From Cyanidioschyzon merolae (taxonomy: Eukaryota): a DNA stretch of 64,000 nt. A program made the position numbers and the translations under genes. Of this stretch, positions 17,833-38,400 are shown piece by piece (positions within the stretch are counted from its first letter, which is position 1; every line of letters begins with the position of its first letter). Below the pieces are notes generated by a model. That model had not been told where the DNA came from. It saw only the letters and a program-made list of their open reading frames with translations, and made no database searches. Location of the stretch: NCBI GenBank assembly GCA_000091205.1, contig AP006502.2; one strand, 5' to 3'.

Positions 17833-20001
17833 TCATCGTCGTCCCTGTTGCTGCCGCCAGGGTACTGTCCCGGCCGGTAGGGAGCTCTTTGGCGAGAGCC
17901 GGTCTCCTGGAAGCGGGATGGTGTTGGTCGTCGCCGGGCGCCCCAGTCTACGCAGGACGTCGGCTACGGCTGCATCGAGGTCGGTACGTGTGCTGCGAAC
18001 TGTCTCTGGCACGAGGCGCTCGCGTCGCATCTCCGCTGCCAATACGGCAACATACTTGTCCAGTCCAGTATCGATAATATCGGATAGCGAAAACGTTGGT
18101 TTCGATGGTTTCGTCGACGGTTTCCGGGGGCGTTCGCCCGACCACCAGTTCATGGACGAGCGACTATACGTTCGACGGTTCACGCTCTGAGCGGGTTTCG
18201 GCCGGCTGGCACCCACGAGACTTGTCCACTCGGGAAGATGCGGTACTGCACTCTGGGTACGACGGCCTCGCCAGCGGCGGTTCACTGGGTCCGCCGGCGT
18301 CGTCTGCTCCGTACTGGGTACAGTCGACGTAAATGTCTGATCCGACTGCTCCCCCAGCGTCATTCCCAACAGCTGTGCCGCTACACGTGCCTGTCGGTAG
18401 TGACGCTGGATCGGTCCAGTCGGCAGTGATCGTACCGGAGCCGGTGATCGTGCTTGATCGATGACACCGGGTTCCGTTGGTGCCGCCTCAGCATCGTACA
18501 CTTCGGAGGTGCTTGGCAGAGCGTCAGGTGACGTCGCTGTCGTTGTGCGTTCATCCTGGGATGAAAGCGTCGTGTCCGGTGCGGTGGACATGCTCGTGAT
18601 CGAGTTCGTATCGTCATCATCCGCACCAGGAGCAGCACCTGCAGCGTCAGCTCCCGGATCATCTTCTGAAAGCCGATGCTCGTTCGAATCTCGATCCTCG
18701 ATGAAATCATGGTCATCATGAGGCAACGAGTCCAATGGATGGTCACGCTTCCCAGTGCCGTGCGTCGAGGAGGACGGCTTCGACCCGGACGACAGAACCG
18801 AGGCGTCCAACGCTCGCTTCTCACCAAACCATCCGTCATTGGAACCAGTTCGTATCCGAATGCCTGGCAGGGAAGTGTGTCCATGTTGATGCTGGTACCA
18901 ATCAGGTGGCAAGCCCTTGTCCCAGGACGTCGACGGGTGCGGAACGAGCGCTGCCGTCGCCGCATCCGCCGTATTCGTCTCGACGCTGCGTGGCATGGTA
19001 GCCATCGAAGGTGCTCGAAAGGCTACATCACGCTTCGCGGGAGCACCACGCTTATCAGCTGTACTTTCCCGATACATAAACGCTTCAGCGTCGTCATGAA
19101 GAGCAGACTCGGCTGGGGTCGCAAGCGCCAGCGACGTCCGGTAGCCGATGTCGCGGTCTCTCTCGCCGGTGCCGACCGTACCAGCCACCAGACCATCTCC
19201 GAGATATCCATACCTTGGTCCATCTCTAGCGTCTTGGTCGTGTTCTATCATACTTTCGTGATCATCGCCATCCGAGTTGAAATCTGAGAGATCGCTCTCA
19301 TCCGTAAACGCCTCGGGGGCGCTTCCCGTCACTACACGTTCCTGTGCATGGCTCTGCTGATCAGCAGCGCGCTCCTGCTTGTGGCAATTATCTTCATTGC
19401 GGATTAGAGCGAGTGCTCGCGCTCTATTCGCAGAGGCGCCTGTCGCAGGACTGTTGTCAAACGACTCGTCTGTGCTCGTTGAGGGCGCCCGCAGCGGCCG
19501 TCCCAGGCCGCTCTGGAGAATGCTTTGCGCAACCGGTTGTCGCTTGAACGTTCTGGAACCTTCATTCTGGCGAATCGTCAACGTAAAGCGCAGCAGCGCA
19601 GTAGTATAGCTCTTCTCCAGTGGCAAGTGAGTCGTGTGCGTACCCTCGATGCCCGCATACTGAGCGAGGTCGACCTGCAACTCCCCGATGCACACTGTTT
19701 GGGTGCTTCTCCCAAAAGGTATCGTCCTTTTCACCTTCAAGCTCAGGAAAAAGGGAGCGAGTACAGAATCTTCGCTACCACGAGCCATCAGTGTCGCTTG
19801 AAAGCGCAGGGACTCGTTCCAGACGACGCGGTGGTTCTCCACGGGTCGGTCCGAGGTAAAGCCTCGCCACTGCACGTGCTGACGGAAGAGGCCCGCTCTA
19901 AACGCCTTTAGTTTCACATGGAAGACACCAATGCTATCAGGCACGGCCAGGAGCTCACAAATATCGAGGCGGACCAAGAAAACTCGCTTTTGGCGGTCCA
20001 T
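17833..20001 (-). CDS. NT-C2 (EEIG1/EHBP1 N-terminal C2) domain protein with a long low-complexity tail. The ORF extends to 20289, but the probable start is the ATG at 20001 ('MDRQKRVFLVRLD').
   Basis: N-terminal 'VFLVRLDICELLAVPDSIGVFHVKLKAFRAG...VVWNESLRFQATL...FFLSLKVK...CIGELQVDLAQYAG' matches the NT-C2 architecture. The remainder is S/T/D/P-rich. The upstream in-frame stretch encodes poly-Ala from a GCT/GCA repeat. Confidence 0.5.
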   Translation of the reverse strand: MDRQKRVFLVRLDICELLAVPDSIGVFHVKLKAFRAGLFRQHVQWRGFTSDRPVENHRVVWNESLRFQATLMARGSEDSVLAPFFLSLKVKRTIPFGRSTQTVCIGELQVDLAQYAGIEGTHTTHLPLEKSYTTALLRFTLTIRQNEGSRTFKRQPVAQSILQSGLGRPLRAPSTSTDESFDNSPATGASANRARALALIRNEDNCHKQERAADQQSHAQERVVTGSAPEAFTDESDLSDFNSDGDDHESMIEHDQDARDGPRYGYLGDGLVAGTVGTGERDRDIGYRTSLALATPAESALHDDAEAFMYRESTADKRGAPAKRDVAFRAPSMATMPRSVETNTADAATAALVPHPSTSWDKGLPPDWYQHQHGHTSLPGIRIRTGSNDGWFGEKRALDASVLSSGSKPSSSTHGTGKRDHPLDSLPHDDHDFIEDRDSNEHRLSEDDPGADAAGAAPGADDDDTNSITSMSTAPDTTLSSQDERTTTATSPDALPSTSEVYDAEAAPTEPGVIDQARSPAPVRSLPTGPIQRHYRQARVAAQLLGMTLGEQSDQTFTSTVPSTEQTTPADPVNRRWRGRRTQSAVPHLPEWTSLVGASRPKPAQSVNRRTYSRSSMNWWSGERPRKPSTKPSKPTFSLSDIIDTGLDKYVAVLAAEMRRERLVPETVRSTRTDLDAAVADVLRRLGRPATTNTIPLPGDRLSPKSSLPAGTVPWRQQQGRR

Positions 20002-20190
20002 GCGACTCGGAAAGCGAAGCTGTTGCAGCGGCAGAGGCAGTGAGCGCCCACTGGGAGCCGTCCAAACACCCACTGGGAGCTGGCGGATGCTAGGAGCCCA
20101 CGGACTCTCGACTCCTCTCAGAGCGAGTACGCTTTGCAGCAGTTCACAAAGTTGTATGTGTCTGCTACGGCGCTCACAGCCCTCGTTCGT

Positions 20191-20225
<35 letters not shown>
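20191..20225. repeat. (CAG)n / (GCT)n microsatellite, ~11 units. It lies in the upstream in-frame part of the NT-C2 gene ORF, where it would encode poly-Ala.
   Basis: 'agcagcagcagcagcagcagcagcagcagcagc'. Confidence 0.95.
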
Positions 20226-20229
<4 letters not shown>

Positions 20230-20608
20230 AAACGTGAGCTTCGGGTCGACTGCTCCGCGCCGAGCCAGGTGCCAGCTGGTGTAGGGCACTGCACGAGGGT
20301 ACCGTTTCGTAGCGCCGAAGCGTGCCCCAACGCGTTGTCGTTCGTGTCATGGACACTGCTACTGACGAATCAAGCACGGATCGGGCGTCCGTGCGCAAGA
20401 GATAACGATTTCTCATGTGGTATAGCGACTGGCACCGTTTGCTGGCCAGGTGCACCCTGTCGGGGCAACGAGGTGCTTCTGGACCTGGTGTTCGCGGGTT
20501 GCAAGCCCGGTTCACTCGGCGTCACAACGAAGCGAGTTTGTGACTGCACTGCAACACGCAAGTGGTGGGAGTGGAACAGCTTAAAATCAAGCGACGATGT
20601 GCATTCCT

Positions 20609-21955
20609 TTAGTATTCTTCCTCTTCCTCGTTGGTGTCTGCTGCGACTTCGATGTAGTCTTTCTCGAGCGCGGCGAGGTCCTCACGCGCTTCGCTAAACT
20701 CGCCCTCCTCCATTCCTTCACCAACGTACCAGTGCACAAAGGCCCGCTTGGCATACATGAGGTCGAACTTGTGGTCGATGCGCGCGAATACCTCAGCGAT
20801 GGCTGTTGAGTTGCTCACCATGCAAACCGCACGCTGCACCTTGGCGAGGTCACCATTCGGAACGACCGTGGGCGGCTGCGAATTGATACCAACTTTGAAA
20901 CCGGAGGGGCACCAGTCCACAAACTGGATGCTACGCTTGCTCTTGATCGCTTTGACAGCGGAATTAACATCCTTAGGCTGGACATCGCCGCGATACATCA
21001 GACAACAAGCCATGTACTTGCCGTGCCGCGGGTCGCACTTGGCCATCATGTTGGCGGGATCGAAGGCAGCTGAGGTGATTTCGGCGACGCTGCCCTGCTC
21101 GTGGTGAGCTTTTTCGGCGGATATAACTGGCGCATAACTCGACAGCATGAAGTGAATCCGAGGATACGGTACTAAGTTGGTTTGATACTCGGTCAAGTCC
21201 ACGTTGAGCGCGCCGTCGAAACGAAGCGATGCCGTCAGCGAAGAGATAACTTGGGCGATGAGGCGATTCAGATTCCGATACGTTGGCCTCTCGATGTCCA
21301 GGGATCGCCGACAGATATCATAGATAGCCTCGTTATCGAGAAGCACGGCCACATCCGTATGTTCCAGCAGCGCGTGGGTGGACAGCACAGAGTTGTAGGG
21401 CTCCACTACAGCAGTGCTGACTTGTGGCGACGGATACACTGTAAATCCGAGCTTGCTCTTCTTTCCATAGTCCACCGATAAACGCTCCAAAAGGAGCGAG
21501 CCTAGACCGGATCCAGTGCCTCCGCCAACTGAGTTGAAGATCAGAAATCCTTGCAGCGCAGAGCAGTTATCCGCCAGTTTTCGTATGCGATCGAGAGCCG
21601 TGTCTACTATCTCCTTCCCTACAGTGTAGTGGCCCCGAGCGTAGTTATTGGCAGCATCCTCACGCCCGCTCATCAGCTGTTCTGGGTGGTACAGCTGGCG
21701 GTAAGGGCCGGTGCGCACCTCGTCTACAACAGAGGGCTCCAAATCCAGGAACAAGCAACGAGGAACATGTTTTCCAGATGAGGTCTCAGAGAAGAAGGTC
21801 CCGAAGGAAGCGTTATTGGCAGCTGCGATCGCCGAGTCGCGGCTAGCCATCGTGCCGTCGGGAAGGATACCATGCTCTAAACAGAAGAGCTCCCAGCAGG
21901 CGTTCGCCACCTGCACACCAGCTTGTCCTATATGGAGTGATATAACCTCGCGCAT
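20609..21955 (-). CDS. TUBA: Alpha-tubulin (448 aa, divergent)
   Basis: '[30 protein letters not shown]', '[25 protein letters not shown]', '[35 protein letters not shown]'; C-terminal 'EEEEEY'. Single uninterrupted ORF. Confidence 0.95.
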
Positions 21956-22254
21956 GATAGATTGTATTCGTTGTGAAGCTTTTCAGACACTAAACACTCA
22001 CCAGAGGCGACTATTCACCGAACCTCCGTCGAATGGTTAGGCAGCACGAAAACTCCAAACCGGAACGCTGAAAAATGGCGCGGGATATTCGAATAGCAGA
22101 CACCTGACGCGTTTCGCCGTTCAAAAATCGAACGCCGCGGCCCGCGGTGTGCAGGAGTGGCGATCGGCGCGCCCTAGACATAACGCCTCCAACTGATGTG
22201 CAGACGCCTCCCAGCCTTTTGGACCGGCCAGCCACTACTGCTTCCAATCTTGTC

Positions 22255-23729
22255 TCATATAGTTCCACCTTGGGAGATTGTCCAACAAAGTTCCCTCTCA
22301 TATACTCTGGAGGGACTTCTTTCCATTACCGCAGATTTCCGTATCTTGATAGCGGTGTTAAAGTCTCGGTTCACAAACTCCATCCGTTTCTTGCCATCAC
22401 TGGTTGTACATACTAATGCAAGTAGCCCTCGAACTTTCGCCCTCCTTTCCATTGGCTCTTCCTTCAGCGGTCCGTACTTTGTGAAATCCTCAGGGCTCCG
22501 CTTACACTTTTCCATCTCTACGCTCTGAAGTGCGCACCTCAGTTCATGGTGTGTATACGACGCACGGAACTCGTCTATTGGTATCATAACGAAACGCCGT
22601 GCACACTCCTTGTACGTTCTTGTCGACGGAGCTGGCGTAGTTCCTTTTTCGGCGCCCAGCGCCCTGTCCCATAGGCTACAACGAGCGTCTGATTTTCATC
22701 CATCTTCAGGGCGCTCAACTGATGGAAAAAGTTCGCGAATGCACGCTGCTTCCCACAGCATAGATTCATTCGCAAACGAGCCCACCGAGGCTTGGTATAC
22801 TCCTCCTACAGTGCACCCCAATGCGCAATGCGAACTTCCATGAATTTCCGAAAAGCTTCAAAGTCCGCTCCTCGGCTAGTCACCTCGCTCAAAGCTTCCA
22901 GGATCTCTTTCATTCCTGAATTCCAAGTCTCGATTTTCTTCCTTGCATTCATTATACCCGATTCTGGGTAATATCTCGCTCTCCACAACCTCAACAGACG
23001 CATGTCTTTCTGACGTAAATTACCGTCGGTCCCATCTTCCGCACGCTTCGGTGCTGCGATGGTTATGATATTCGTGTTTCCGGGGTCCGCGCCAACGACA
23101 AAGTCGTTCTCATGCACTTTCTGCGCCGCAGGACCCGCCTTCTTGGTTTATTCATGCTTCTCCGCGTCAACGACAAGGTCGTTCTCATGCACTTTCTGCT
23201 CCGCTGGACCCGCCTTCTTGGTTTATTCATGCCCCGCCGCGCCAACGACAAGGTCGTCATCCTGCACCCCCTGCGTCGCAGAATCCTCCTCTTTGTTTTC
23301 TTCATGCTCCGCCGCATCAACGACAAGGCCGTTATCCTCCACCTCCTGCATCGCAGGACCCGCCTCCTTCTCATCTTCATGGTTCGCCGAGGGCGGAACT
23401 GGACGATCTTTCTTCAACCGCCGATAGTGTACACACTTGGCTACTCCATCGGTCTCGATCATCCCAGTGAACAACTTTTGCTTGCTCATTCTCAGACGTT
23501 TGAAATTGAAGATATTCTTCCAGTGCGTCTCCCGGTTTTCGCCGGTGAAGTTCTCCCTGCTAACAGTGAACTTCGGGCTGATCTCCTTCATGATGCCGTA
23601 GAGGACTGTGGAGTCGATAGTCACGATATGTGACTTGATGTTGCACAACGAAATGACGTTGAAGCGCTTCTCCATTAGGAAGGCCTTCCGTCTCTCCCAC
23701 TCTTCATTGTTTTCCTCACTCAGCTTCAT
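22255..23729 (-). pseudogene. TnpB/Fanzor-like RuvC nuclease, copy A, split over four or more frames (23729-23223, 23117-22806, 22775-22584, 22587-22255). It is either a pseudogene or intron-interrupted.
   Basis: RuvC-I-like '[16 protein letters not shown]'. Zinc-finger remnant 'IPIDEFRASYTHHELRCALQSVEMEKCKRS', compare TnpB 'VDPkyTSqtCs.CG'. RuvC-III-like 'VNRDFNTAIKI', compare 'RDvNAAiNI'. Continuity across the B-copy break is visible here ('ARKKIETWNSGMKEILEALSEVTSRGADF'). Confidence 0.5.
23094..23380. repeat. Internal ~72-bp tandem repeat (~4 units) within repeat-family copy A; on the minus strand it encodes repeated acidic 24-aa units ('[25 protein letters not shown]'-like)
   Basis: 'gccaacgacaaggtcgttctcatgcactttctgc.ccgc.ggacccgccttcttggtttattcatgc' recurs at ~23094, ~23166, ~23238 and ~23310. 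Copy C has ~2 units (33930-34080) and copy B ~1. Confidence 0.7.
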
Positions 23730-23942
23730 CTCCGCATTGCATTCGAGCTCTCGATCCTAAAACACGAAATAGCGCAGGACGAGGCGATAGTATCTTCCCT
23801 TATCTTTTTTCAACTCTGATATCTTGTCTGTTGGATTCGCCAACCCCAAGATCGCGCGGTGCTCTTGCATAGCCGCACGGATTACAGAAGATTCATTCGT
23901 GCTCCTGCGTGACTTCTTCTTGTCGACGAATTCGATCTCATG

Positions 23943-24311
23943 TTAATGCTTGCGATCCTTCGAGATGCCATTGATAATCGCCCATATTCCTTTGCGAGAG
24001 ATGCCCGGGCAGAGTGCAAATACGGTGCGTATCATGAAACGTTCGAGGTTCATTGTGAAATGGTTCTTCAGGTTCGTGAGGTACTTCATCACTCCGTATA
24101 TGTAAATATCCCAGTAACCCTTGCATCGAGTACTGTTGAAGCTGTAAAAGGGATGATTTTCGTGGAGGCCATGGACTAGCACATTTTCCCGCCGCGCTTC
24201 CTCTGTACCAAGCATCAGCTGACGAATAAAGGTCTTATCGAAAAACTCGTCCGGAATCTCGACCGTTTCCATGTGCATCACATCGCGATACATCTCCCTC
24301 GCCAAATGCAT
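23943..24311 (-). CDS. Conserved small ORF of the repeat family (copy A, 122 aa), function unknown. The antisense frame 23940-24179 is also open and conserved.
   Basis: 'GVMKYLTNLKNHFTMNLERFMIRTVFALCPGISRKGIWAIINGISKD' is conserved with copy B (30660-30962) and copy C (34612-34914). Confidence 0.4.
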   Translation of the reverse strand: MHLAREMYRDVMHMETVEIPDEFFDKTFIRQLMLGTEEARRENVLVHGLHENHPFYSFNSTRCKGYWDIYIYGVMKYLTNLKNHFTMNLERFMIRTVFALCPGISRKGIWAIINGISKDRKH

Positions 24312-24529
24312 CAGTCCTGACGACGCCTTGACAATACTCTTGGATTACGAGTCGACACGTTTTTCGATAGCGTCTCGCAACTTTTCCTTACACGGATCCT
24401 TGATATGTCCAAGAAGAAAGGTTTTTACCACCTTTTCGTCGTACAGTTGTCGTCCTTGCCGCTTACGACGTAGGGCCTCCCCCTTTGGGTTCTCCTTCTC
24501 TTCCTTTTCTTCTGGACTCAGCACTGTTT

Positions 24530-24620
24530 TTTGTTTTTTTTTCTAGCAGCCGGCGACCCTGGGCCTCCAGGATCGTGGACTTGCTTTTTTCATAACTTTG
24601 TTTTTTTGTTTTTTTTTGAA
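24530..24620. repeat. T-rich low-complexity tract flanking repeat copy A
   Basis: 'ttttttgtttttttttctag...tttttttgtttttttttgaaaaac'. Confidence 0.7.
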
Positions 24621-27600
24621 AAACAACGCTCTTTGAACCCTTCTGTTATATATTTCGAAAAAACACTTGACTAGACTTGTTTGAAGTTCTAAACAAAAAT
24701 CAACTGAAAGACTATACTTGGCTACGACCTGAACGGAAATCTGACGTTTACAGCTGAACAACACGCTGCTGGTCAGGATCGCGTTTAACTTCAACGGCGG
24801 CATCCGCGTCGCGTCTCCTGCCTGGCTGAATCTCCCAGGTGCGCAAATCGACAGCACTATTTAGAACAAAGAAAAGAGATTCACGACCAAAAAGCAAGGA
24901 TATAACGGATTCTTTCGTCCTCTACGATAAACGATAAAACAGGGAAAAGTTTTCCGTACTGTCGCAAGTCCTCCTTCCAGGCGGAAAGTTCCGCGAGCCT
25001 GACGAGTCTCCCAGACTCGTGCTTCGTGCTCCCCCCAATGGCAGGTCTTGAAGCGAGACCTCGGCAACTCGTCTGGAATGCAGTTTATTCCAAGATCGCG
25101 AGTGGCTGGAGTGCGTCTGGTCGTCGCCCTGATCGTCGTTTTCTTCCAGCAAATTGCATGGCTCCGTTGCAGGCAGCAAGTCTGTCTGCGCAGTTGCCAA
25201 ACTCCCAGGAGAATGATGAATCCCAGGCCCCGTGTCGGCTGAACCACACCTCGAGCCGATGCCCCCAGTGATATGACAAAGTTATTCTGTTCCCGTGCTG
25301 AATCCGGACCAGCAGTATAGGCTCTGTTGCTGCAGGCGCTCGGGGCAGGCGCTCGGCACACCATAGAACCTACGAAACGACCATCGCATCCGAGAGAAAG
25401 CATGGATAATGGAGCTTAAAGGTAGGGTGGAACATGATAGACACTCTTTCGATCACCAATATCCATCCCGCAATCTAGGAGCCGTGGTCCATGAAAACAT
25501 TCTGGAAAACACAGCGATCTGTGGATTTGAGATTTGCGCATACACTGCCGCGGATACCTTGACGCGTCGCCACGGCGATCGATCGGAACATAGAAAGCAC
25601 AGGTGCCGAAAAGTATCACAAATTGGAAAGGGAACCATTTTCAATCGTTCAAGATTGACCAAGAGAACGACTTGTTGTCGAGTGTTGTCCTTCTTTTTAG
25701 TGGCTACACAGCTGTCGCGGAACCGATAAATCAAGAGGATGCAGCCAAAACCCTCAACGAACGCAGATGCGGTAGCCCAACTGTCTGAGAGCTCCGAATC
25801 ATCGATAGCCGGGCATGATGGACGGCGTGAGGCGTACGATCGAGTAGGATGGCGAGGTCAGGACCCGTCTCGATGCTTTGGGTTCCTTTCCGATGAATGA
25901 GGACATTTTCTGCGCCTTATTTCGAGCGAATATTAGCGTCCAACTAGCGAAATCGGACAATCTCCGGCTGGAGTGCATGACATCGTGCACGGGACGCCAA
26001 CGGTATCCGCAGTGCAGAGACAACAAGCGTGGATTCAAGTGTCTGCTCAATATGTAGGAAATAGAAATGACGAACATGTCGTGTCGTTTGGTCGAGGCCC
26101 GTGGCTCTGGAGGTGCTGCAACGCGCTGAACCTGCACTTTTGCTCCGTCGACCAGCGCGCACAAAGTGTGCAGGAACTGAATCTTTCCATCTCCCATCGA
26201 TGCAATCCAGACGATTTGAGCGCATCACGAGCACAAGGGCACGTTGAGCGTGCTAGACGACAACAGCAACATCGTGAAGCAATGACGAATGCACCAGATG
26301 ATGGAAAGTTAGTTGACCATCCGTTTATGGCGAGGCAGTCGAGGGCAAGAGACTTGCGATGATATGACTCTCCGCGCAACAGTACGCGCCATGACTCGAT
26401 GCGTCGTGACTGGAAGGCTCCCATCACGAGCGAGGGATGTCTCGTGCTTCCCGGGCGGACGTCCGTCGGCTCGGTATCCAGCGAGCTTTCGCAGGAATCG
26501 TTTCGTACCAAGCGTGTGCGTTGTGCTGCGATGCGGAAGACTTGCGCTCACGAAATCAGTGCCTGGGAGAGGGTCATAGATTCCCGTCTGGCTCAAGGCC
26601 CTGGCATGATACGGGGTCACCAATGCGGCAAGGCTGGTGCGTTCTATGCATACATCGGGAACGGTTTCCCCGGTAATCGGTGACCAAGAATGGTGCCATA
26701 TCATTCAGTAGTACTGAATATTGGTATATATAGGCAGAACGTTTCACCGTAAACCTCTGATGGATTCCTAAAGCAACGTCAGACTGAATCGGATCGGGTC
26801 CGTTCAGATAACCCGAGTGTTTACGCTCAACATGAGGGTCTCTTCTCCTTGTCATCAACATGAGCGTTTTGCGCGCTTCCACTGCGAATGCTTCCTTTTT
26901 CTCTCGCTTATATGCGGTTTTCAGTGTGCCGGTCTCTACGATCCCTCCAGCTCCGATGTCAGCTGTTGGGGAGAGTTCATGAGAGCGTGTGAGTCCCGCT
27001 CTCGTCGCTTCCTGCTGTTGTCGACGCATTGCATGCCGAGGCTCAAGTACGATCTACATATCGATTCCCATTTTCACCGTCTTTGTAGATAGCCTTGATG
27101 CGCTCTTCGCAGCGCTGTTCATTCACTGAGCTCAGGTGCTCCCATCTGTCCACCGAGTTTGCTTCTCAGAGCATTGCCAACCTCTATAGTGTTCGAAAGC
27201 TTCGTTCATCTCGTTCGATGCCGTCCTCCGTTTCCGCGCTCGGTGCCGTACCGTACGATCATGAGCAACTTCTGTATGAAAACTACGGCGACTGCGCTGT
27301 CCTCTGCACGTGGGAGCGCGCGCTGTTCCATGAAAGCCCGTACTTGTGGAACGCAATGTTGTCCTTGATGAAACAAGTACCGAGAAGCAAAATCCAGGAT
27401 ACAGAACATGATAACGAATTTCGATGTTCCGGCGCCCCGTTCGAGCTAAGCGATGCTGCACGCTCCACTGGAAACAATCGCTCCGATGAATCTAGTCCGA
27501 GTCCGAGACGCTCTTTTATGCAAAGAGCAGAAATGCGAGCTTCTCGCAACGTATCATAGGAGAAGTATCATGCCGTTGTCGAATGGCGTCTTATCGATGG

Positions 27601-30600
27601 GAACAAAGATGGAAAAATCTGATTTTTTGAACGGAACAGATGATTCGACTTGACAAGTTCCGTGAAGTTTCGGCTTATACTTGTGACCGAATCGTTCACG
27701 GACGACCTCGAGTATCTTTCCTCGTCAACCTAGCGGTGCAAAGGGCTGCACCCATGATTTGCCTTGAAATAAAGAGATCGAATCCCTGAAGGATTTGTGA
27801 TATGCGCGTGTCTCACATAAAGAAAAGAGATGGGCGGAGGCTTTGCCTCATGAATTCGATGATGATATCGGTAATTTCACGAACCTTCGTTCGGCGGCGT
27901 CGCCAAACATCCTGAATCCGGTGACGTAACAAAAGCCAACGGCAAAGCGTCGTAGCGGGCACTTCACCACTGAGAACGCTGAGCCTACGTATGCATCCGC
28001 AAGCCCTTCGTGCAGCACTCGAAATTACAATTCTATACATGTACATACGGTTCGGAAAAAAATCTCAGGGCATGAACAGTGCGACCAGTTCCATGTTTCA
28101 GTTTACTCTGACACGCGTCCTAGTGCAGGTAGCGGGGTGCGAGCTTCAGCGGCATCGTCCTCGCTTGACCAAGAAGCCTTGTAGTTACAGCGGGCGCGCT
28201 CCGATGCCTGAACGTCATCGCGGGCCCATCGGACAAGTCTCGCACTGAACGCCAATAACGCAACCCTTGTATTCATCTTCTGCGTGTTGTGCAGGGGCCC
28301 GCCCTGGCAGCGGTTTCTGCATAACTCGGCACCGCTCAGAGGACCTGTGGCACATCCACGGGACAAGGACATGATACGCGGGCGGCGGGTACCGGTCCTG
28401 GCCCTGGTTCCGCTGACGACGGCACCTCAGCCATAACTTGCGTACTGCGACGACGAAAGCGACGTGCTTGGTGGCACACGCTGCGCGCCATGGTGTCGCT
28501 CTCGGTTCCAAACAGCTGCCGAGGTATACCATCACGAAGCCATGTTGCAGGACGTTCACAGAATGGGGCAGGTACAGCCTGTGCTTCCCGCTCAGTCCAA
28601 GTCGGGGAACGAGTCAGCACACCAATAGGCCCAGCGAGACGACGTGTCGCAGCCGTCACAGACGCTTGTTCTATATCCTCGACAGGCTCATGCCTGGTGT
28701 TGGTACCGCTCAGCGAACCAACAGTTGACGTACTCGAGGAGCGTGTGCGCACACCAGGTCCGGTGCGCGCATCGCCTCTGTAGTGCCATTTTGTGAGCGC
28801 ATTCTCGTGCATCCTCGAGCGATCTCGGGCCTCGACGTGTACGCCTCTTGGAAGGTGTTTGTGAGTCGATATCGAGAAGCTTTGGGGCGGAACAGTTTGC
28901 GTGAAGCTGAAGGAGCGAGCCCTCTGAAGCTTTGCGCTTTGGGGTTTGACTCTCAAGTCACCCGAGATCGTACGTTCGCGAACGCAGATGCACCAGCACC
29001 GCCTCACGGCTACGTTTTGTATTCCGTTTTCGCTGGGCCGGCACGCAACCTCCTCGCGTCGGTCTGGGACCATTTGCGACGTAGTGGCGTGCGGTATGCG
29101 TGGTATCAGGCAGAGAGCTCCTGTAGAGCGAGCACCGTCAGGTCAACGGTCACCAAAGCACACGTTGTCAGTTCCGGGAAACGCGGCCACATGCGCGGAG
29201 CCAGGGACTCGTACGGAAAATGATGTGCTGCTGACGTTGCGAGGAACCCGAACTAGTATTTTTCTTTCACCCTTTGTCCTAATAGTCTTCCTTTTCTGGC
29301 AAATAGTACGCTTTTTTACGAGGGTATTGCTTTTTCTATTGATCTTCTCGGGTGTGAGCGCCTTCTTATGGGTGCGGCGCAGCAGAATGTGGGTGCTGGA
29401 AGTTCGTGACTGTATCGGGAGAATGGCCACGATGCGTTTCCAGAGGCGTCAAATGAGCGTCGTTCCCGTCAGTATCGTAGTGAAAGCCCGGTGCAGGACG
29501 CAGCAGCACGCGCCACAGCCAGCTACAGCAGCCCAGACGCATGACAGGCGGCGTGCGCAAGGGACACCAGCGCCCGAAGTGCCAGAGTGGAGGGATGATA
29601 TTGATTTTTCTTTGACGCCACAGCCGTCTTGCTGGCTACCGTCGACACTGAGCATCGACTGCTCTTCTCTTTGGGCACTGCTGTGGCGCTTGGGTCCGGG
29701 CGACGATTAGCCCAGTGTACGTTAATCAGCACGAATCGATCCATTCGGTGAGCGTACCGGATCGCCAGCCATTGACATGCTTCGACTTGTGAACAAAAGG
29801 AATTTCGGGGCAGTGTGGATTGGGTGCTTCTCTCTGTGACGGGCGCCAAAGCATCTCATCGTTATGCTGTGAAGAGGGCTGTCTCCGAAGATGACCTTTT
29901 CATCGTGCGCTGTCCAGAGGGTTCTGTAGACAGAGCGAACCATGTCAAAGATGATCTCGCTCGGAAAGCCTGGAGAACATCAAAAAGAATTCATAAAATT
30001 TCGCTGGGAATATTTCAGCCCGTACAGCCGTTCCCAATGCTCTGCAGTAAAAGGTTGCCACTGTTCGAACAAGCGTGCAAGCAACGACCTGGAGCAGCGG
30101 CGAGGCTGCGAGCGTTTCAGAGACCCGGAGGCTTGCAGCGCGGGAGTGTGCCATGCGCTCGCTCTGGCGGCAACGTGAGTACCTGTCGAGGCCGTACCGC
30201 GGTGTCGCTTTCTAATTTGCACCGCGAAACAGGAAACGAATGTCATGGGCTTCACTAGTGCATCTGCAACTGACAGCGATGCCAGGCAGCGAGGCAGCTG
30301 GACGCAATCCGGGGCCTTGTTCGGGCGCTGAATGTTTTGTTCGATGACAAAACGTGTATATGGACCATGGATCCCAGGTTGCGTGATGGATGGGCATTGG
30401 CTTTCTGGAAATCACTCTTTATTTGAAGCTCCAAGTTTTAGTTCGAGTACCCGTACTTCCTCTCGGACTTGGGGGTCGTTCTGTACGTTCCATCGTGCGC
30501 CGAGTGCCTGCAGCGCTGCAGCCCGCAATAGCGCCTAAACCGCTGATGCAGATGCTGCACAGAGAGAGAACGGCTTTGCCATGCCACTGAGGGCGTCATA

Positions 30601-30659
30601 TCGCGGAACGCTTCACCAGATACGGAGTCGGAGTACGTAATCATTCTGGGAGCCTAAAA

Positions 30660-30962
30660 ATGGGCAAGCAGACGTCCTCTATGCGGCGGCGCGAATCGAT
30701 ATACCAGGATTACAACCTGAGCAGGGCGATGCCCAGACACAGCGCGTCCGCTCCTAGTCCCAGAATACACTCTGACGGGGCGATGAAGTACCTCACGAAC
30801 CTGAAGAACCATTCGACAGTGAGCCTCGAAGGTTTTATGATACGCGCCGTGTTTGCAGCTCACCCGGGCATCTCTGGCAGAGGGATATGGGCGATTATCA
30901 ATGGCATCACGAACGATTGCCGACATGAAGGTCAGATCGAATTTGTCGACAAGAAGAAGTGA
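30660..30962 (+). CDS. Conserved small ORF of the repeat family (copy B, 100 aa); the antisense 119 aa frame 30654-31013 is also open
   Basis: 'AMKYLTNLKNHSTVSLEGFMIRAVFAAHPGISGRGIWAIINGITNDCRHEGQIEFVDKKK'. Copy C differs at 2 of 100 residues. Confidence 0.4.
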   Translation: MGKQTSSMRRRESIYQDYNLSRAMPRHSASAPSPRIHSDGAMKYLTNLKNHSTVSLEGFMIRAVFAAHPGISGRGIWAIINGITNDCRHEGQIEFVDKKK

Positions 30963-31212
30963 CACAGGAGCACGAATGAAGCTTTTGTGATCCGTGCGGC
31001 TACACAAGAGCACCGTGCGGTACTGGGGCTGGCGAATCCGGCAGCAAAGATATCAGAGTTGAAGAAAGATAAGGAAAGATACTATCGCCTCGCCCTGCGG
31101 TATTTCGTGTTTCTGGACCAAGAACTCGAACGCAAGGCGGAGATGAAGGTGAGAGGGAAAAAATGAAGAGTGGGAGAGACGGAAGGCTGTCCTAATTGGG
31201 AAGCGCTTCAAC

Positions 31213-32397
31213 GTGGTTCCAATGTGCAACATCAAGTCAGATTTCGTGACTATCGACTCGAGAATCCTTTACGGCATCTTCAAGGAGATCAGTCCGGAGT
31301 TCAATGTACGGAAGACAGAGTTCACCGGCGAAACCCGGGAGGCGTACTGGAGGAATATATTCGATTTCAAACGTCTCAATACGAGCAAGCAGAAGATATT
31401 CACGGGGATGATCGAAACCGGTGTAGTAGGCACGTGTGTCCACTATCGGCGGGTGAAGGCGGATCGCCCTATCGTGCCTTCGGCTTTCCCCGTGACGAAG
31501 CGTGAAGATAAGAAGGAGGTGGGCCCTGGAACGTATAGTCCCCTGGATAACGACTTCGTGGTAAGCATGGACCCAGGGAACACGAATATCATAACCATCG
31601 CAGCACCCAAGCGTGGAAAAAATAGTAACAACGGCAACTTATGCCAGAGAGACATTCGTCTTTTAAAGCTCTCGAGAGCTAGAGACTACCGAGAATCGGG
31701 AATAATGAATGCGAGGAAACAAAGTGAGACCTAGAATTCAGGAGTGAAGGATCACCTGGAAGCTATGAGCGAGGTGACGAGCCGCGGAGCGGACTTTAAA
31801 GCTTTTCGGGAATTCATGAAAATTCGCGTTAGTCATTGGGGGACGCTGTGGAAAGAATATTCAAAGCCCTGGTGGGCTCGTCTGCGTATGAGTCTGTACT
31901 GTGGGAAGCATCGTGCATTCGCGAACTTTTTCAATCAGTTGAGCGCATTGAAGGAGGACGAGAGTCAGAAGCTCGTGGTAGCATACGGAGCAGGGCGCTG
32001 GGCGTCGAAAAAAAGGACTACGCCAGCTCCAACTACAAGAACGTACGAGGAGTGCACAAGGGGTTTCGTTACGATACCTGTAGATGAGTTCCGAATGTCG
32101 TATACACACCATGAGCTGGGGTGTACACTCCAGAGTGTCGACATGGAAAAGTGCCAGCGGAGCCCCGAGGATATACAAAAGTACGCAGCGCTGACGGAAG
32201 AGCAAATGGAGAGGGAAGCGAAAGTTCGAGGATTGCTTGCACTGGTGAGTACAGCTACTAACGGCAAGAAACGTATGGTGTTTGTGAACCGGAACTTTAA
32301 TGCCGTTATCAGTATAAGGAGATGTGCGGTGATGGAGACGAGACCTCCGAAGTTGAGAGAATTTTATGGGGCAACCTCTCAAGGTGGAACTATATGA
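31213..32397 (+). pseudogene. TnpB/Fanzor-like RuvC nuclease, copy B, split in two frames (31213-31734 and 31744-32397) by a stop or frameshift. The RuvC-III Asp is replaced by Asn.
   Basis: '[16 protein letters not shown]' (RuvC-I). 'LVVAYGAGRWASKK' lies where RuvC-II is expected but has no Glu. 'VTIPVDEFRMSYTHHELGCTLQSVDMEKCQRS' is a zinc-finger remnant. 'VNRNFNAVISI' is RuvC-III-like with D->N. Confidence 0.5.
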
Positions 32398-32653
32398 GAA
32401 AAAGTTGAAACCAGTAGTGGGTGGCCATTCCAAAAAAGCTGGGAGGCGTCTGCACTTTAGCTGGAGACGTTCTGTCTAGGGCGCGTCGGTCGCCACTACT
32501 GTACGCCGCTGAAGGCAACGTTTTTCTTTCGAAAGGCGTTCGCTGGAGGTGTCCTGCACTTGAAACTGTGGTTCAAGGACACACGGGTGGCTGGTTCCCG
32601 AAACTCGCGTCCAACACTACCGACGAGCGACGCCGTGCTCCCCGAACGAAGCG

Positions 32654-33073
32654 ATGAAACACCGCATAAACCTGCGTAAGCTCGGTCGAGACTCAGCCCA
32701 CCGCTTAGCTCTCTTAAGAAATCTTGTTTCTAGTCTGATTGAGCACGAGAGCATAGAAACGACCGTGGCGAAAGCGAAGGAGTTGCGTCGCGTTGCGGAT
32801 AAAATGGTAACGCTTGGAAAGCGTGGCGACGGTCTGTCCCGAATCCGAGCTCTTGGTTTCGTTCGTGGACCGCATCTTGTGCAAAAACTGTTTCGTACGC
32901 TTGCGGAGCGATATCGTGAACGTAACGGTGGCTATACTCGAGTGATGCGATCGAGGAACCGACGAGGCGACAACGCCCCAATGGCTATCGTTGAACTCGT
33001 TGACTCGCCGAAGGGAGTAATACGCCGGCCACTGGAACACTACCAACGTTCAGAGCAGCGGCAATCAGTGTAA
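32654..33073 (+). CDS. Ribosomal protein bL17 (bacterial/organellar type), 139 aa
   Basis: 'MKHRINLRKLGRDSAHRLALLRNLVSSLIEHESIETTVAKAKELRRVADKMVTLGKRG...NGGYTRVMRSRNRRGDNAPMAIVELVD' aligns along the full length of bacterial L17. No long presequence, as is typical for mitochondrial bL17 (e.g. yeast MRPL8). Confidence 0.85.
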   Translation: MKHRINLRKLGRDSAHRLALLRNLVSSLIEHESIETTVAKAKELRRVADKMVTLGKRGDGLSRIRALGFVRGPHLVQKLFRTLAERYRERNGGYTRVMRSRNRRGDNAPMAIVELVDSPKGVIRRPLEHYQRSEQRQSV

Positions 33074-33872
33074 CACAAACCATTGATCGGTGCATGAGAC
33101 CATGAAACCGCGGGCATGGGAATCTAAAGCGCGGAAGCAAATGGCCATGCCGGTGGCGGCACCTGTGAAATGAAGTTACAGTGATGAATTGGAACGCTGT
33201 ACCCAGCAGGAGAGGTATTCCTGCCCTGTCATCGCTCAAAATTGAGAGCCTCAAAGCTGGTACTCGATGCTCTAGAGTAGAGGGTGTTTTCACTGCTGGG
33301 ATTAACATGGACAGCTTCATTGCCGGGTCAGTTGGTCCACTCTGTGCACTCTCGGCCTGGGCCGTATAAGGGCTTCGAACCGTTTTATGCTGCGGAAAGG
33401 TTGACGCCATCCATAACGCGGCAGCCGTCCACCGTAAAGGATCGCTTCGCGGTAGCGCCGTGATTATGAGGCCGCCACTCCTAGAACTGAGCTCCAAAGC
33501 GCTCGGCAACGCCACCTGCTTATGCATGTGTACGCGTTGCACGTACCGGATCGCCAGCACGAGCTGCATGCTGTCTGGTGTGCTTTCACGTAATGAGCTT
33601 GGAAGACTAGAATCCTGCGTTATCACGGAGGCATGCGCGGCACGCGGACCTCGACACGCTGCACCTCGAACGCGTTTGCGTCTGACAAGTGTTGGGCCAC
33701 GCTGAGGACTTCCGTTCCAATCTCGTAAATCCGTGTCGAATGTGGTAAAACAGCCAACGGATCGCAGAGAGTCTCAACTAAGTGAGCTGGATATTACAAA
33801 AGAGGCTGCTTCCGGGGACACTATTCGAGAATCTCAAAAGTGGCATGTCTTTCTGACGTAATTTACCGTCAG

Positions 33873-34361
33873 TCACATCCTCCCCACGCTTGGGTACTGC
33901 GATGTTACGATATTCGTGTTCCCAGGGTCCGCGTCAACGATCAAGTCGTTATCTTGCGCCTTCTGCGTCGCAGGATCCGCCTCTTCCTTTTCTTCTTGCG
34001 GCACCGCGCCAACGACAAGGTCGTCATCCCGCACTTTCTGTGTCGCAGGATCCGCTTCCTTCTCATCTTCATGCTTCGTCACGGGGAAAGCCGAAGGCAC
34101 GATAGGGCGATCCGCCTTCACCCGCCGATAGTGGACACACGTGCCTACTACACCGGTTTCGATCATCCCCGTGAATATCTTCTGCTTGCTCGTATTGAGA
34201 CGTTTGAAATCGAATATATTCCTCCAGTACGCCTCCCGGGTTTCGCCGGTGAACTCTGTCTTCCGTACATTGAACTCCGGACTGATCTCCTTGAAGATGC
34301 CGTAAAGGATTCTCGAGTCGATAGTCACGAAATCTGACTTGATGTTGCACATTGGAACCAC
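33873..34361 (-). pseudogene. Truncated TnpB/Fanzor-like N-terminal fragment, copy C
   Basis: The first ~95 aa are identical to copy B 31213-31500. It then has two acidic 24-aa repeats and stops right after 'DPGNTNI'. Confidence 0.45.
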
Positions 34362-34611
34362 GTTGAAGCGCTTCCCAATTAGGACAGCCTTCCGTCTCTC
34401 CCACTCTTCATTTTTTCCCTCTCACCTTCATCTCCGCCTTGCGTTCGAGTTCTTGGTCCAGAAACACGAAATACCGCAGGGCGAGGCGATAGTATCTTTC
34501 CTTATCTTTCTTCAACTCTGATATCTTTGCTGCCGGATTCGCCAGCCCCAGTACCGCACGGTGCTCTTGTGTAGCCGCACGGATCACAAAAGCTTCATTC
34601 GTGCTCCTGTG

Positions 34612-34914
34612 TCACTTCTTCTTGTCGACAAATTCGATCTGACCTTCATGTCGGCAATCGTTCGTGATGCCATTGATAATCGCCCATATCCCTCTACCAG
34701 AGATGCCCGGGTGAGCTGCAAACACGGCGCTTATCATAAAACCTTCGAGGCTCACTGTCGAATGGTTCTTCAGGTTCGTGAGGTACTTCATCGCCCCGTC
34801 AGAGTGTATTCTGGGACTAGGAGCGGGCACGCTGTGTCTGGGCATCGCCCTGCTCAGGTTGTAATCCTGGTATATCGATTCGCGCCGCCGCATAGAGGAC
34901 GTCTGCTTGCCCAT
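34612..34914 (-). CDS. Conserved small ORF of the repeat family (copy C, 100 aa)
   Basis: Differs from copy B 30660-30962 at 2 of 100 residues. Confidence 0.4.
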   Translation of the reverse strand: MGKQTSSMRRRESIYQDYNLSRAMPRHSVPAPSPRIHSDGAMKYLTNLKNHSTVSLEGFMISAVFAAHPGISGRGIWAIINGITNDCRHEGQIEFVDKKK

Positions 34915-35469
34915 TTTTAGGCTCCCAGAATGATTACGTACTCCGACTCCGTATCTGGTGAAGCGTTCTGCGATATGACGCCCTCAGTGGCATGGCAAAG
35001 CCGTTCTCTCTCTGTGCAGCATCTGCATCAGCGGTTTAGGCGCTATTGCGGGTTGCAGCGCTGCAGGCACTCGGCGCACGATGGAACGTACAGAACGACC
35101 CCCAAGTCCGAGAGGAAGTACGGGTACTCGAACTAGAACTTGGAGCTTCAAATAAAGAGTGATTTCCAGAAAGTTACTACCCATCCATCACGCAACCTGG
35201 GATCCATGGTCCATATACACGTTTCGTCATCGAAAAAAGACAGATCATTGTGGGCGCAGACTGCCGTGCGCGCTGCCTCGTAGCGCCGCGCCCGGCGCGA
35301 CGCTACGCCTCCGCCACCGAAGGCCATCGGGGCGCAGGCGCCACCGCAGAAGCAAGCCTCCGCCGATCGACTGCCTCAGGTCAACGCGATGCAGCTTTCG
35401 TAGTGTTTTGAGCGGAGCGCTCGCATCCTGTGTAGGTTTCTTTGGCTTTGCACTCGCCTACATAAGGCT

Positions 35470-38400
35470 ATGCCTGGTCAACCTGCCATAAGAGTTCATG
35501 ACACGCTAGGATTCGCCGTCAATGTACGATTCCAGACGGATGTGCTCGGAACGCAGCTTGCAACGCGTGACACAACGTTCGTGCACGTGGCGCTGCAACA
35601 GCAACGGCGACAACGAGCGTATCCGAACCGGTCTGGACGACGACACGTTCACCAGAGCGAACAGCGACTCGACGTGCTCCATCGCAATTCAGCATGGCGT
35701 CCGCAAGGTACAGTTCAACGGAGTTCGTCTCGCATGGAGTTGTGGCTCTCGACGGACGAGGGTGAGGTCTTCGGGCCGGCGCCGGCGTTCTCTGTGAAAA
35801 CAAAGGCCGCACCCCGTACAGAAGTTCCCGGAAAAACGGCATCCGGGAGCACTGCGATGTTGTCGGCCTCGAGGGAACAGGGCTCTGGAGACGGTCGGAC
35901 ACGCGTCGACCGTCGACGCCTCAAGTTGCTCTTTCAGCTGGCCTGCGATGCGGAGTCGAAAGGCCGTTTCGCCGAGGCAGCAAGCCTTGCTCGCCAGTGT
36001 CTTGAACTGGACGAGTATGATGCTCGCTCCTGGTTGTTGCTGGCACGTCTCGAAGCGAGCCTCGTACATGCGGACGATCGCAGCTGCACAGTCAGTGTCG
36101 TCAACGGCACGGAGGGCATCCATGTCTGCACAAGCCACCAGCGTGCACGTAACACTTACCGTCAGGGCGTACTCATGTGCCCCGATTCAGTGCATCTGTT
36201 ACATGCTTGGGCGATGTTCGAATATCGACTCGGGGAGATCGAAACTGCACGGGAGCTCTTCCGCCGCGGTCTTGCTCTAGATCCGGCGAACGCCTACATT
36301 TACCACTCGTGGGGACTGATGGAGTGCCGACGTGGAGGCGTCGAGAAGGCCCAGCAACTCTATGTTGAAGCATCTGCATGCTGCTTGAATGATGCGATTT
36401 GTAGCGCCTGGGCCGAACTCGAGGCACGTGGCGGCCGAATGCGTCTCGCTCGCTGCATTTTCGAGCTCGGTCTGGTAATGCTGCTTCGTGATTTCGCGGA
36501 CACGCTGCATCTTACGGGTTCGGATACCGAAGAGCACGATCCAAATCGAGAAGCGGTCCGAGATATGCCGTACGGCTCGCTTCGCAGTCTCGTCCGGGTG
36601 CTGGTTGCGGAGCACTTGAGGGAGAAGGAACGCCCCCCAGTTTCTGGCTTGTGTGGGAAAGAGCGTGACATGGCGTGCCTATCACCGAACGCTGATGCCC
36701 GGCCTACGCCCGGAGAACGCAGTGAGCGAGCGCTCCGAGCCTTACTTTTGGATTGGTTATCTTGGTATAGAGACGGGCGCAACCCGAATCTGATCCATAT
36801 TCGTCTCACGGTACGCACGCGATCGCGCAGAGGTGATCGATATCAGCTGGCTGCGGACCATTGTGTGCAGTATGCAGACTCGGAGCTCACCCATGGGTCC
36901 ATCACGCGAACACGGGAAATCCTACAGTGGGCACTGGATCTTGATCCCACCAATGTGAAAGTCCTGCTGGCGTGCGCTCGTCTTGATGCACAACGTGGCG
37001 CCCATGAGCGGGCTCGCTCTCTGTTTCGGGCGGCGGAAAGCGCGCTCCGAAAGCGAGGAACTGCAGTTGAACGCATAGACGATGCGCAGAGTGCGAGTCA
37101 CCGAGTTGGTGTCTCTCTCTATACATCCTGGGCAACGATGGAGATGAATTTGAGCAGGCCGGTCGAAGCAAATGCCGTGCTTGAACGAGGGAATGAACGC
37201 TTCCCCCGGAACCACGCCCTCTACCAAACCTGGGCACTAGTGCAGGAAAAGCGGGGACAGCCGGATGCAGCCCGCCAACTCTTGGAACAATCCGTTCGCT
37301 TGCGACCGAACGCGCCTGCCTATGTCGCATGGGCTCTGCTGGAGGAGCGCGAGGGCCATTTGGACACGGCACGTGAGCTCTTCGAAGCCGCTCTGCAAGT
37401 GGATCCGAGCCACAGCGCCACCTACAATGCTTATGGTCGTCTCGAGGCTCGTGCCGGGGACCTCGAAAAAGCTCGCCGTGTTTTTCTTCGTGGTCTGCAT
37501 GTCCAACAGGCACCCTGCATCTATCATGGATTCGCCCTCGTCGAGCTACGCTACGGGAATGGTATCCGACGAGCAGAGGAGATCCTTTTGGAAGGAATCG
37601 CGCAGAAAAGCGACAGAAGTATGTTTCTATGGCACACACTAGGTGCTCTCGCTTTTCAACAGAAAAAGTATGAAAAAGCGCGAGAGATTTTCGCCCAGGC
37701 GCTTCAGATCTACCCCAGCAATAGTCGATTGCTTCTCGGAGCGGCGCTCTCGTACGCAGCAGAGGCAACGGCTTTAGACGCGGAGAGGCCGCGCCAGTTA
37801 TTTCGGCGCGCGCTACAGGAGGATTCCTTTCACGGACATGCATGGCAATGCTGGGGAGTATTCGAGAGTCGCCTTGGCAACGTGGATGCTGCCCGGTTAC
37901 TCTTTGAACGCGGCGTTGAGCGATGTCCGTTCCACGTACCACTTTGGCAGGCGTACGCGCTGCTGGAGAGCACCGCAGGGAATATCCGCAAAGCTCGCAT
38001 CCTCTTTGAACGCGGCATGCAGCTAGAAAGCGACCACGTTCATCTCTTGAATGCTTACGCATGTATGGAAGCACGAGTCGGCAACTATCAAAAGGCACAG
38101 TGTTTACTGGAACGGGCGCTGCGCATCGATCCTGGGCATGGTGCAACCTGGAACGCGCGTGCCTTGCTGGAGCTGCGCAGAGGGAACCAGCACGGCGCTC
38201 GCGAGGTGCTAGAGGAGGGCCTCGGAAAGGACGCCAACCACGCGCCGCTGTACCGAACCTATGCGCGTCTGGAGTTAGCGCTTGGCAACGTTGAACGAGC
38301 ACGGCTGCTCATTGAACAGGGCCTTGTCAGGGATGCCAGCGATTCCGGCCTGATCCAGCTGCGCACTGATTTGCAGAAGCCGTCAGCAGTTTTCACAGCC

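Follow-up and report, generated by a model that had tools for sequence, protein, structure and literature searches.

Identity of the element

The window analyzed in the current study is a 64,000-nucleotide stretch of Cyanidioschyzon merolae contig AP006502.2, in which an alpha-tubulin gene is preceded on the same strand by a TnpB-like open reading frame (ORF). An earlier note had described a conserved, non-coding block of ~145 bp between the two, and proposed it as a candidate omega-RNA scaffold. Positions 22115-22255 are here assigned, by their match to a published consensus, to the 3' end of a degenerate full-length copy (copy A, minus strand) of CMe-1A, a Fanzor1 transposon of the red alga C. 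merolae. The features of the locus are as follows.

20609..21955, minus: alpha-tubulin gene, intronless and co-oriented with copy A (ORF list, Pfam Tubulin); its ATG lies 159 nt past the right end
22085..22114, minus: first 30 nt of the copy A flank, a candidate guide or target segment, with GGTGTC at 22099-22104; 19/28 positions identical to the copy B flank
22115..22173, minus: non-coding right end (RE) of copy A, 59 nt, a candidate for the 3' part of an omega-RNA scaffold and/or a cis-acting transposon end (conservation profile, published consensus end)
22118..22134, minus: terminal hairpin CGTTC-loop-GAACG, adjoining the element end (alignment, folds)
22174..22255, minus: last 82 nt of the Fanzor1 ORF, with the ancestral stop TAG at 22174-22176 (consensus frame, published CMe-1 C-terminus)
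22182..22208, minus: 7-bp hairpin GGCGUCU/AGACGUU (minimum free energy (MFE) folds), over the most conserved nucleotides AGGCGTCTGCAC (0.94 identity), which form its 5' strand
22174..24605 (start approximate), minus: Fanzor1 ORF remnant of copy A (three-frame translation, consensus ATG at position 906, published protein)
22115..25512 (left end approximate), minus: copy A, degenerate full-length CMe-1A (consensus 7-3169 at 82-86.5% identity by BLAST; tblastn with the relative P0004 matches aa 1-742)

CMe-1A was described by Bao & Jurka (2013, PMC3627910) as a ~3.2 kb Fanzor1 element present in ~150 genomic copies, which are ~80% identical to the consensus. It has no terminal inverted repeats (TIRs), its targets, target site duplications (TSDs) and class were left undefined by the authors, and its 5' 635 bp correspond to a separate element, TE-N2_CMe. 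The published consensus of 3169 bp terminates in ...GAAAGGCG, and the CMe-1 protein given in the supplement has 734 aa with the C-terminus ...NFVGQPLKVELYEKKLEAVVGGRSKKTGRRLHVSWRRFV. The same C-terminus, ...NFVGQPLKVELYEKKLEAVVGGRSKKTGRRLHVSWRRFV*, closes the open frame of a consensus built in the current study from 35 independent copies, whose translation terminates ...GRRLHVSWRRFV*, matching the published protein. The end of the 3169-bp consensus coincides with the homology boundary at 22115 in copy A and 32538 in copy B (BLAST). Both the ~80% identity between copies and the separate 5' module of 635 bp were recovered, in agreement with PMC3627910.

The call of a TnpB/Fanzor-like protein was thus borne out, both by the published consensus and protein and by profile matches to solved Fanzor1 structures. 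A profile of 17 diverse homologs matched Parasitella PpFz1 (9cf0, 1.9e-15), Spizellomyces SpuFz1 (8gkh, 2.8e-12) and Guillardia GtFz1 (9cer, 8e-5), and the matches span the DEFR and NRD.NA motifs. A single-sequence phmmer search against the PDB gave no match, so that the profile was needed to reach these structures. The reconstructed protein has 89 relatives at 28-74% identity in metagenome-derived data, and the RuvC-I DPG, RuvC-II DEFR and RuvC-III NRD.NA motifs are invariant in the family alignment. A local Pfam scan of the reconstructed window proteins and their homologs assigned no family, the only hits being a precomputed DUF8286 tag and a weak Cas12f1-like TNB match in one distant homolog. 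No TnpA (Y1 HUH) gene was seen around the copies in the window, CMe-1A being a single-ORF element.

Self-BLAST and tblastn detected three related copies in the window (A, B and C) and four far more distant relatives. Copies A, B and C are all pseudogenes with stops and frameshifts, as judged by three-frame translation. The ORF remnant of copy A retains the RuvC motifs DPGNTN, IDEFRA and NRDFNTA, and a RuvC-III residue is changed from D to N in copy B. Copy A also includes the TE-N2-like 5' module and a threefold tandem duplication of ~75 bp. The features of copy B, which was compared with copy A, are given below.

30328..30341, plus: T-rich run directly 5' of the copy B left end (junction GAATGTTTTGTT/CGATGAC), candidate transposon-associated motif (TAM) or target half-site
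30342..32538, plus: copy B, CMe-1A (consensus 1-422 and 1399-3169 at 77-87% identity, consensus 423-1398 deleted internally)
32398..32479, plus: tail of the copy B ORF, stop at 32477-32479
32480..32538, plus: non-coding RE of copy B
32654..33073, plus: bL17 gene, co-oriented with copy B (ORF list, Pfam Ribosomal_L17); its ATG lies 115 nt past the RE

Conservation of the right end

The block is conserved between the two copies: A 22255-22110 and B 32398-32540 have 109/142 aligned bases identical (BLAST E about 0), and the pair of peptides quoted for it earlier are real translations. It is not non-coding throughout. The TnpB-like ORF had been ended at 22255, and the ancestral frame, according to the 35-copy consensus and the published protein, continues to the TAG at 22174-22176 (32477-32479 in copy B). 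The first 82 nt are therefore coding and the 59 nt of the RE alone are non-coding. The likeness of A and B in this block is explained by their descent from the same family.

A total of 75 related loci were fetched and clustered by their flanks into 38 independent insertions. Across these, column conservation was 0.7-0.94 up to ~22110 (copy A numbering) and 0.2-0.45 beyond, which together with the published CMe-1A terminus places the outer limit of homology where it had been drawn. A TAG or TAA stop was kept in ~24/38 copies, and the 59-62 nt past the stop were conserved up to the sharp boundary. In divergent subfamilies the 59-nt RE had 0.74-0.82 identity, compared with 0.53-0.69 for the upstream sequence. 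The last 62-125 nt were kept at 0.65-0.82 in divergent copies and in 'ghost' copies that consist of the right end only, again against 0.53-0.69 upstream, and homology in the ghost segments begins at the 5' strand of the 7-bp hairpin. Since the terminal ~60-125 nt are the best-kept part of the element between divergent subfamilies, their conservation identifies them as a putative cis-acting module.

Two ghost-like segments (L073 ~1110-1227 and L041 ~1115-1233) retain no more of the element than its final ~120 nt, starting at GGAAGCGTCTGCAC. Upstream they adjoin unrelated sequence, and the left end of another copy follows ~780 nt further downstream.

Placement relative to host genes

Both window copies point towards the start of a closely following gene, 159 nt (alpha-tubulin) and 115 nt (bL17) from right end to ATG, as was noted earlier. 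Identical tubulin and bL17 proteins are encoded on many JGI and ENA metagenome contigs. To extend the count to the family, the nearest long ORF no more than 1 kb downstream of each independent right end was scored. Co-oriented ORFs outnumbered opposed ones by 32:2 with an ORF length of at least 120 or 150 aa, 29:3 with at least 200 aa and 24:2 with at least 300 aa (binomial p 7e-8 to 1e-5). Against a stricter null of 0.75, which allows for a preference for promoter-containing intergenic regions without a preference in orientation, 32/34 gave p=0.004. The left side of the elements was unbiased (7:7; Fisher right versus left, p=0.005). JGI gene calls at two loci agreed with this placement, and the distant Fanzor remnants in the window also face co-oriented gene starts in 3/3 informative cases (4483, 46601 and 55359). 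Copies are thus far from randomly positioned relative to genes, and promoter-proximal, co-oriented insertion, which the earlier note had offered as an alternative to an omega-RNA arrangement, is strongly supported across the family.

The distance from the right end to the first ATG ranged from 4 to 440 nt (median ~120 nt), and in several loci was only 4-21 nt. The downstream proteins are mutually unrelated and belong to ordinary host genes, including tubulin, G3P dehydrogenase, a DEAD-box helicase, a bicarbonate transporter, an eIF5B-like GTPase, UFD1, RF-1 and a RACK1-like WD40 protein; the housekeeping character ascribed to the downstream genes is not a general property of the family loci. 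In the DEAD-box helicase, the position of the Q-motif permits no alternative start, and at least part of the 5' untranslated region (UTR) must therefore be element sequence.

Coincidence in the window, with the 3' similarity due to ancestry without function, is very improbable: it is compatible with two co-oriented genes out of two (p=0.25) and with block conservation between close copies equal to that of synonymous sites, but the 32:2 ratio already refutes it for placement, and the terminus is preferentially kept in divergent and ghost copies.

Insertion within a few hundred bp upstream of genes is a feature of promoter-targeting eukaryotic transposons such as S. pombe Tf1, the Drosophila P element and the tRNA-gene-targeted elements of Dictyostelium, and CMe-1A resembles them in this respect. 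These are retrotransposons or classical DNA transposons with known integrases, unlike CMe-1A. To our knowledge, a Fanzor1-only element that is strictly co-oriented with Pol II genes has not been described before.

At one locus (L053 4137-6546; also L054) the Fanzor stop is mutated to TAT, giving an 803-codon open frame that runs through the right end into the ORF of the host glycerol-3-phosphate dehydrogenase. The host ATG of L053 lies 4 nt past the right end.

Sequences flanking the insertions

Beyond the boundary a unique flank had been described. Full divergence does set in after ~20 nt, but the first ~30 nt are still identical between A and B at 19/28 positions, and carry a motif that is semi-conserved family-wide, TTNG...GGTG(T/C), the first 7-20 nt being semi-conserved in general. 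The base frequencies were T at +1 in 23/35 loci, T at +2 in 26/35, G at +4 in 22/35 and T at +5 in 19/35. GGTG[TC] was found within 25 nt past the right end in 17/37 loci, compared with ~1.7/37 in control windows, and GGTGTC in 7/37 right flanks, compared with ~0.07 expected from controls. On the other side, a T-rich run of 8-12 nt precedes 10/10 independent long-form left ends; without empty sites, this run is not separable from element sequence. Small groups of otherwise unrelated loci have 9-14 nt in common past the right end. In a parent-daughter test the flank-sharing loci were not each other's closest relatives inside the element, which favours a target-site preference over inherited element sequence. 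No convincing TSD was found by eye at loci with both ends.

These flanks bear on the cause of the directional placement. One explanation is that a strand-specific target (T-run followed by TTNG..GGTG) lies on the sense strand upstream of genes, the RNA or promoter of the element being uninvolved. The conserved motifs on both flanks of independent insertions, and a flank similarity that is independent of element relatedness, argue for it; on the other hand, T-runs and composite sites in element-free DNA showed no clear link to gene orientation (6 versus 4, 6 versus 3, and 5 sites), although these samples are tiny. In this strict form the explanation is possible and is put forward tentatively.

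Alternatively, the bias could be the outcome of selection, if the right end drives or passes on outward transcription as a promoter or 5' UTR and only gene-ward insertions survive in the compact genome. This would fit the host ATGs found 4-21 nt past the right end in several loci, including the DEAD-box helicase without an alternative start, as well as the confinement of the bias to the right-end side; an omega-RNA would itself require outward transcription. However, many of the distances are 100-440 nt, which leaves room for a host promoter, and the block in front of the tubulin gene has evolved in the manner of the dead ORF, with higher conservation in the 160-nt spacer. This spacer (21956-22114) was the least polymorphic non-coding part across strains, with 1.2 variable sites per 100 nt as compared with 3.2-3.6 for the block (Poisson p~0.08). 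As the spacer and not the block looks constrained, the data suggest that the host promoter at this locus lies in the spacer. Selection as the source of the bias is rated as somewhat unlikely, and the directional placement is most likely due to a target preference that is strand-specific and acts in promoter-proximal DNA.

The 3' end of the element is fixed across copies and the 5' modules are variable. Many copies without the TE-N2 module start at consensus ~640-690, at the small palindrome GCGCTC-GGT-GAGCGC. At least three different upstream modules, themselves repeated, precede this start (in L009, L017, L053 and L037; in L067, L022, L073 and L041; and in L010 and L015).

Two other readings of the element were rejected. 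If CMe-1A were a retroposon, with the T-run as an antisense poly(A), the truncations would be at the wrong end for 5'-truncated retrocopies. If it were an intron in host 5' UTRs, its ends should be GT...AG, which they are not.

Hairpins and the omega-RNA interpretation

In known Fanzor1 systems the guide RNA is encoded at the position occupied by this block. The SpuFz1 omega-RNA comprises a conserved region of 75 nt and a variable flank guide of 14-15 nt, and 'ghost' loci of S. punctatus retain only the ends and the RNA region (PMC10432273). In Chlamydomonas the guide RNA maps to the Fanzor 3' UTR, and additional RNA-only copies exist (PMC10530073). Fz1 omega-RNAs have in common a first stem-loop of 7 bp (SL1), the remainder being variable and amounting in the smallest case to a single short stem ahead of the guide (PMC11423790).

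MFE folds recovered both hairpins of the CMe-1A right end. The 7-bp hairpin at 22182-22208, in which 83.7% of alignment cells were paired without covariation, is by its size a candidate counterpart of SL1. The terminal hairpin forms in the family as CGTTTTTC-TTTT-GAAAGGCG or as CGTTCGA-CTT-TCGAACG, two variants that maintain pairing in different registers. A role of the block as a candidate omega-RNA scaffold is therefore plausible by homology and anatomy: its position at the end of the ORF and at the right end, and its hairpins, fit the published Fanzor1 arrangement, with the difference from the earlier proposal that part of the 'scaffold' is coding tail.

According to the reading that we consider fairly probable, the block is the decayed right end of a CMe-1A copy which served as omega-RNA template in active copies and shows strand-specific placement. 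In active master copies, the right-end module would be the template of the Fanzor1 omega-RNA, with transcripts that pass from the ORF tail across the right end and extend into the flank. The SL1-like 7-bp hairpin and the terminal hairpin would make up the scaffold, the first ~15-20 nt of the flank the guide, and the T-run to the left of the element the TAM. With Fanzor1 acting in trans, alleles that lack the element may then be cleaved, by which the copy would be kept or duplicated. In A and B, which encode dead nucleases, the system would be a relic. The directional placement would arise from the strand-specific target preference in promoter-proximal DNA, and selection for outward, gene-ward transcription may reinforce it.

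Several results weigh against this interpretation. The structure check proposed in the earlier note gave no covariation: RNAalifold on the aligned copies yielded 3 pairs only (-0.9 kcal/mol) with zero compensatory change, and explicit helix counts showed pairing and covariation no higher than in shuffles, the power of such tests being limited by the fact that the copies are decaying members of one family. Fold z-scores of -2.1 to +1.2 indicated no unusual stability, and Rfam gave no match at E<=1 over 20000-36000. Between close copies, conservation of the non-coding block (0.69-0.88) was no better than that of third codon positions (0.81), and in nine haplotypes of the tubulin locus the block was as polymorphic as the dead ORF. 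A CMe-1A-type right-end block was not recognisable in the four distant remnants of the window. The first ~20 flank nt are semi-conserved here and variable in S. punctatus, so that the actual limit of the element, and with it the guide, may be located beyond the boundary given here. No empty site was detected for tubulin or bL17 in other samples, where every contig carried the insertion, and the orientation of T-runs and composite sites in element-free DNA, as given above, also belongs here.

The missing covariation is also what would be expected if the block were solely a transposition end at the DNA level. An unlinked enzyme of the rolling-circle or HUH type, like that of Helitron2 or IS200/IS605, would then recognise the hairpin and the left palindrome in single-stranded DNA, and no guide RNA would be made. 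A right-end hairpin together with the palindrome at which short-form copies begin, the constancy of the 3' end as opposed to the changing 5' modules, the lack of both TIRs and TSDs, and a T-rich target like that of the Chlamydomonas Fanzor1/Helitron2 elements are all consistent with such an end. When compared with Helitron2, CMe-1A has the 3' subterminal hairpin, and a T-run adjoins its left end, the exact boundary there being ambiguous. By inspection, however, the only complementarity that might serve as an asymmetric terminal inverted repeat (ATIR) was 6-7 nt (CAAAACG / CGTTTT) and lies inside the hairpin, not upstream of it, and neither a RepHel nor a TnpA was observed in the loci or in the window. 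Moreover, all Fanzor1 proteins tested to date use an omega-RNA encoded at this position (PMC10432273, PMC10530073, PMC11423790), and DNA-end and RNA roles overlap in OMEGA systems. Although the two roles of the block cannot be separated computationally, an end without any guide RNA is considered unlikely.

An extension of the omega-RNA reading is ectopic homing, in which the transposase-less CMe-1A would spread by Fanzor1/omega-RNA cleavage at sites resembling TAM plus guide (T-run followed by TTNG..GGTG) and by repair-mediated copying, while transcription of the guide also feeds the downstream gene. This is a speculative and rather improbable idea. If true, it would explain why TIRs, TSDs and a transposase are missing, why the flanks are semi-conserved without following the element phylogeny, why nearly all surviving copies are oriented towards a gene, and why the Fanzor ORF was kept for so long, which puzzled Bao & Jurka.

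Comparison with known systems

The element studied here and the CMe-1A of PMC3627910 are the same, with matching termini, 5' TE-N2 module and absence of TIRs. That account predates omega-RNAs, and contains no placement or orientation bias, flank motifs or right-end hairpins.

SpuFz1 (Saito et al. 2023, PMC10432273; Xu et al. 2024, PMC11423790) and CMe-1A are both Fanzor1, the latter by profile homology, and agree in the 7 bp of the first hairpin, in the presence of a second one ahead of the flank, and in the existence of 'ghost' copies that keep the ends only. SpuFz1 has inverted repeats, a CATA TAM, an RNA shown experimentally and variable guides. CMe-1A differs in having no inverted repeats, a T-rich left flank, a semi-conserved right flank and a candidate SL1 inside the ORF tail.

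The Chlamydomonas elements CRe-1/2/3 (CrFNuc-1), which lie in non-autonomous Helitron2 (PMC3627910; Jiang et al. 2023, PMC10530073), are likewise algal and Fanzor1-only, and resemble CMe-1A in the lack of a transposase, the T-rich context and the 3' hairpin. They have identifiable ATIRs, short TSDs and Helitron-like termini, whereas none of these could be demonstrated for CMe-1A. IS200/IS605 TnpB elements have the layout that is proposed for CMe-1A, with a scaffold that takes in the 3' end of the nuclease ORF together with the right end, a guide supplied by the flanking DNA, and a TAM on the 5' side of the left end; subterminal hairpins at both ends and the lack of TIRs and TSDs are common to these elements and CMe-1A. 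In contrast, IS200/IS605 elements are bacterial, carry the TnpA Y1 transposase and have an orientation tied to replication, whereas CMe-1A is eukaryotic, has no TnpA, and is oriented with respect to the neighbouring gene.

Since 2013 for the element, and 2023-24 for the omega-RNA layout of Fanzor1, these have been known, and the block is no discovery in itself. A literature search found no report that ties CMe-1A to an omega-RNA or describes a placement bias, and as far as this search reaches, two features may be new, namely the directional placement and the defined sequence context of each flank. If the placement is confirmed genome-wide, this compact, transformable alga with very few introns would offer a tractable system. 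It could address how Fanzor serves its transposon in eukaryotes, how Fanzor-only elements move, and whether transcription of guide RNA is coupled to host gene expression.

Other copies and minor observations

The most intact copy sampled (L006 3800-6259; also L009) has an open frame of 819 codons with all three RuvC motifs. In L006 the Gln of ...NF.GQ is replaced by a TAA, which closes the frame 36 codons ahead of the canonical stop, and this copy is among the few with a convergent downstream gene.

The threefold tandem duplication of ~75 bp in copy A lies at 23086-23389 (consensus 2117-2197). The repeats encode acidic 'KEAGPA.QEV.DNDLVV' units directly before the RuvC-I motif, and similar repeats occur in relatives such as P0004. 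An ATG ORF of 180 aa at 24861-25403 (minus), wholly within the TE-N2-like 5' module of copy A and with no family match, is probably spurious.

The four remnants of distant Fanzor1 lineages are located at 4946-5533 (minus), 25632-26402 (plus), 47697-48540 (minus) and 55581-55730 (minus), with 24-51% aa identity to family members. The sole trace of the block near them is a short AGGCGTCTGC fragment at ~55540. Searches of the window with the core motif and an nhmmer profile detected copies A and B and, apart from these, only a short fragment at 55535-55563.

The third related copy lies beyond the bL17 gene.

33825..35232, minus: copy C, the same deletion derivative as copy B, 3'-truncated at consensus 2301 and thus without a right end

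By BLAST, copy C maps to consensus 1-422, 1399-2196 and 2126-2301. Between copies B and C, identity is 98.4% over 1193 nt (30336-31528 versus 34046-35238), and the two are inverted around bL17. On metagenome contigs (loci L082-L091) the outer flanks of B and C were found in both arrangements, X-B...C-Y and Y'-B...C-X', which reflects either a polymorphic inversion mediated by the inverted repeat or ambiguity in the assembly.

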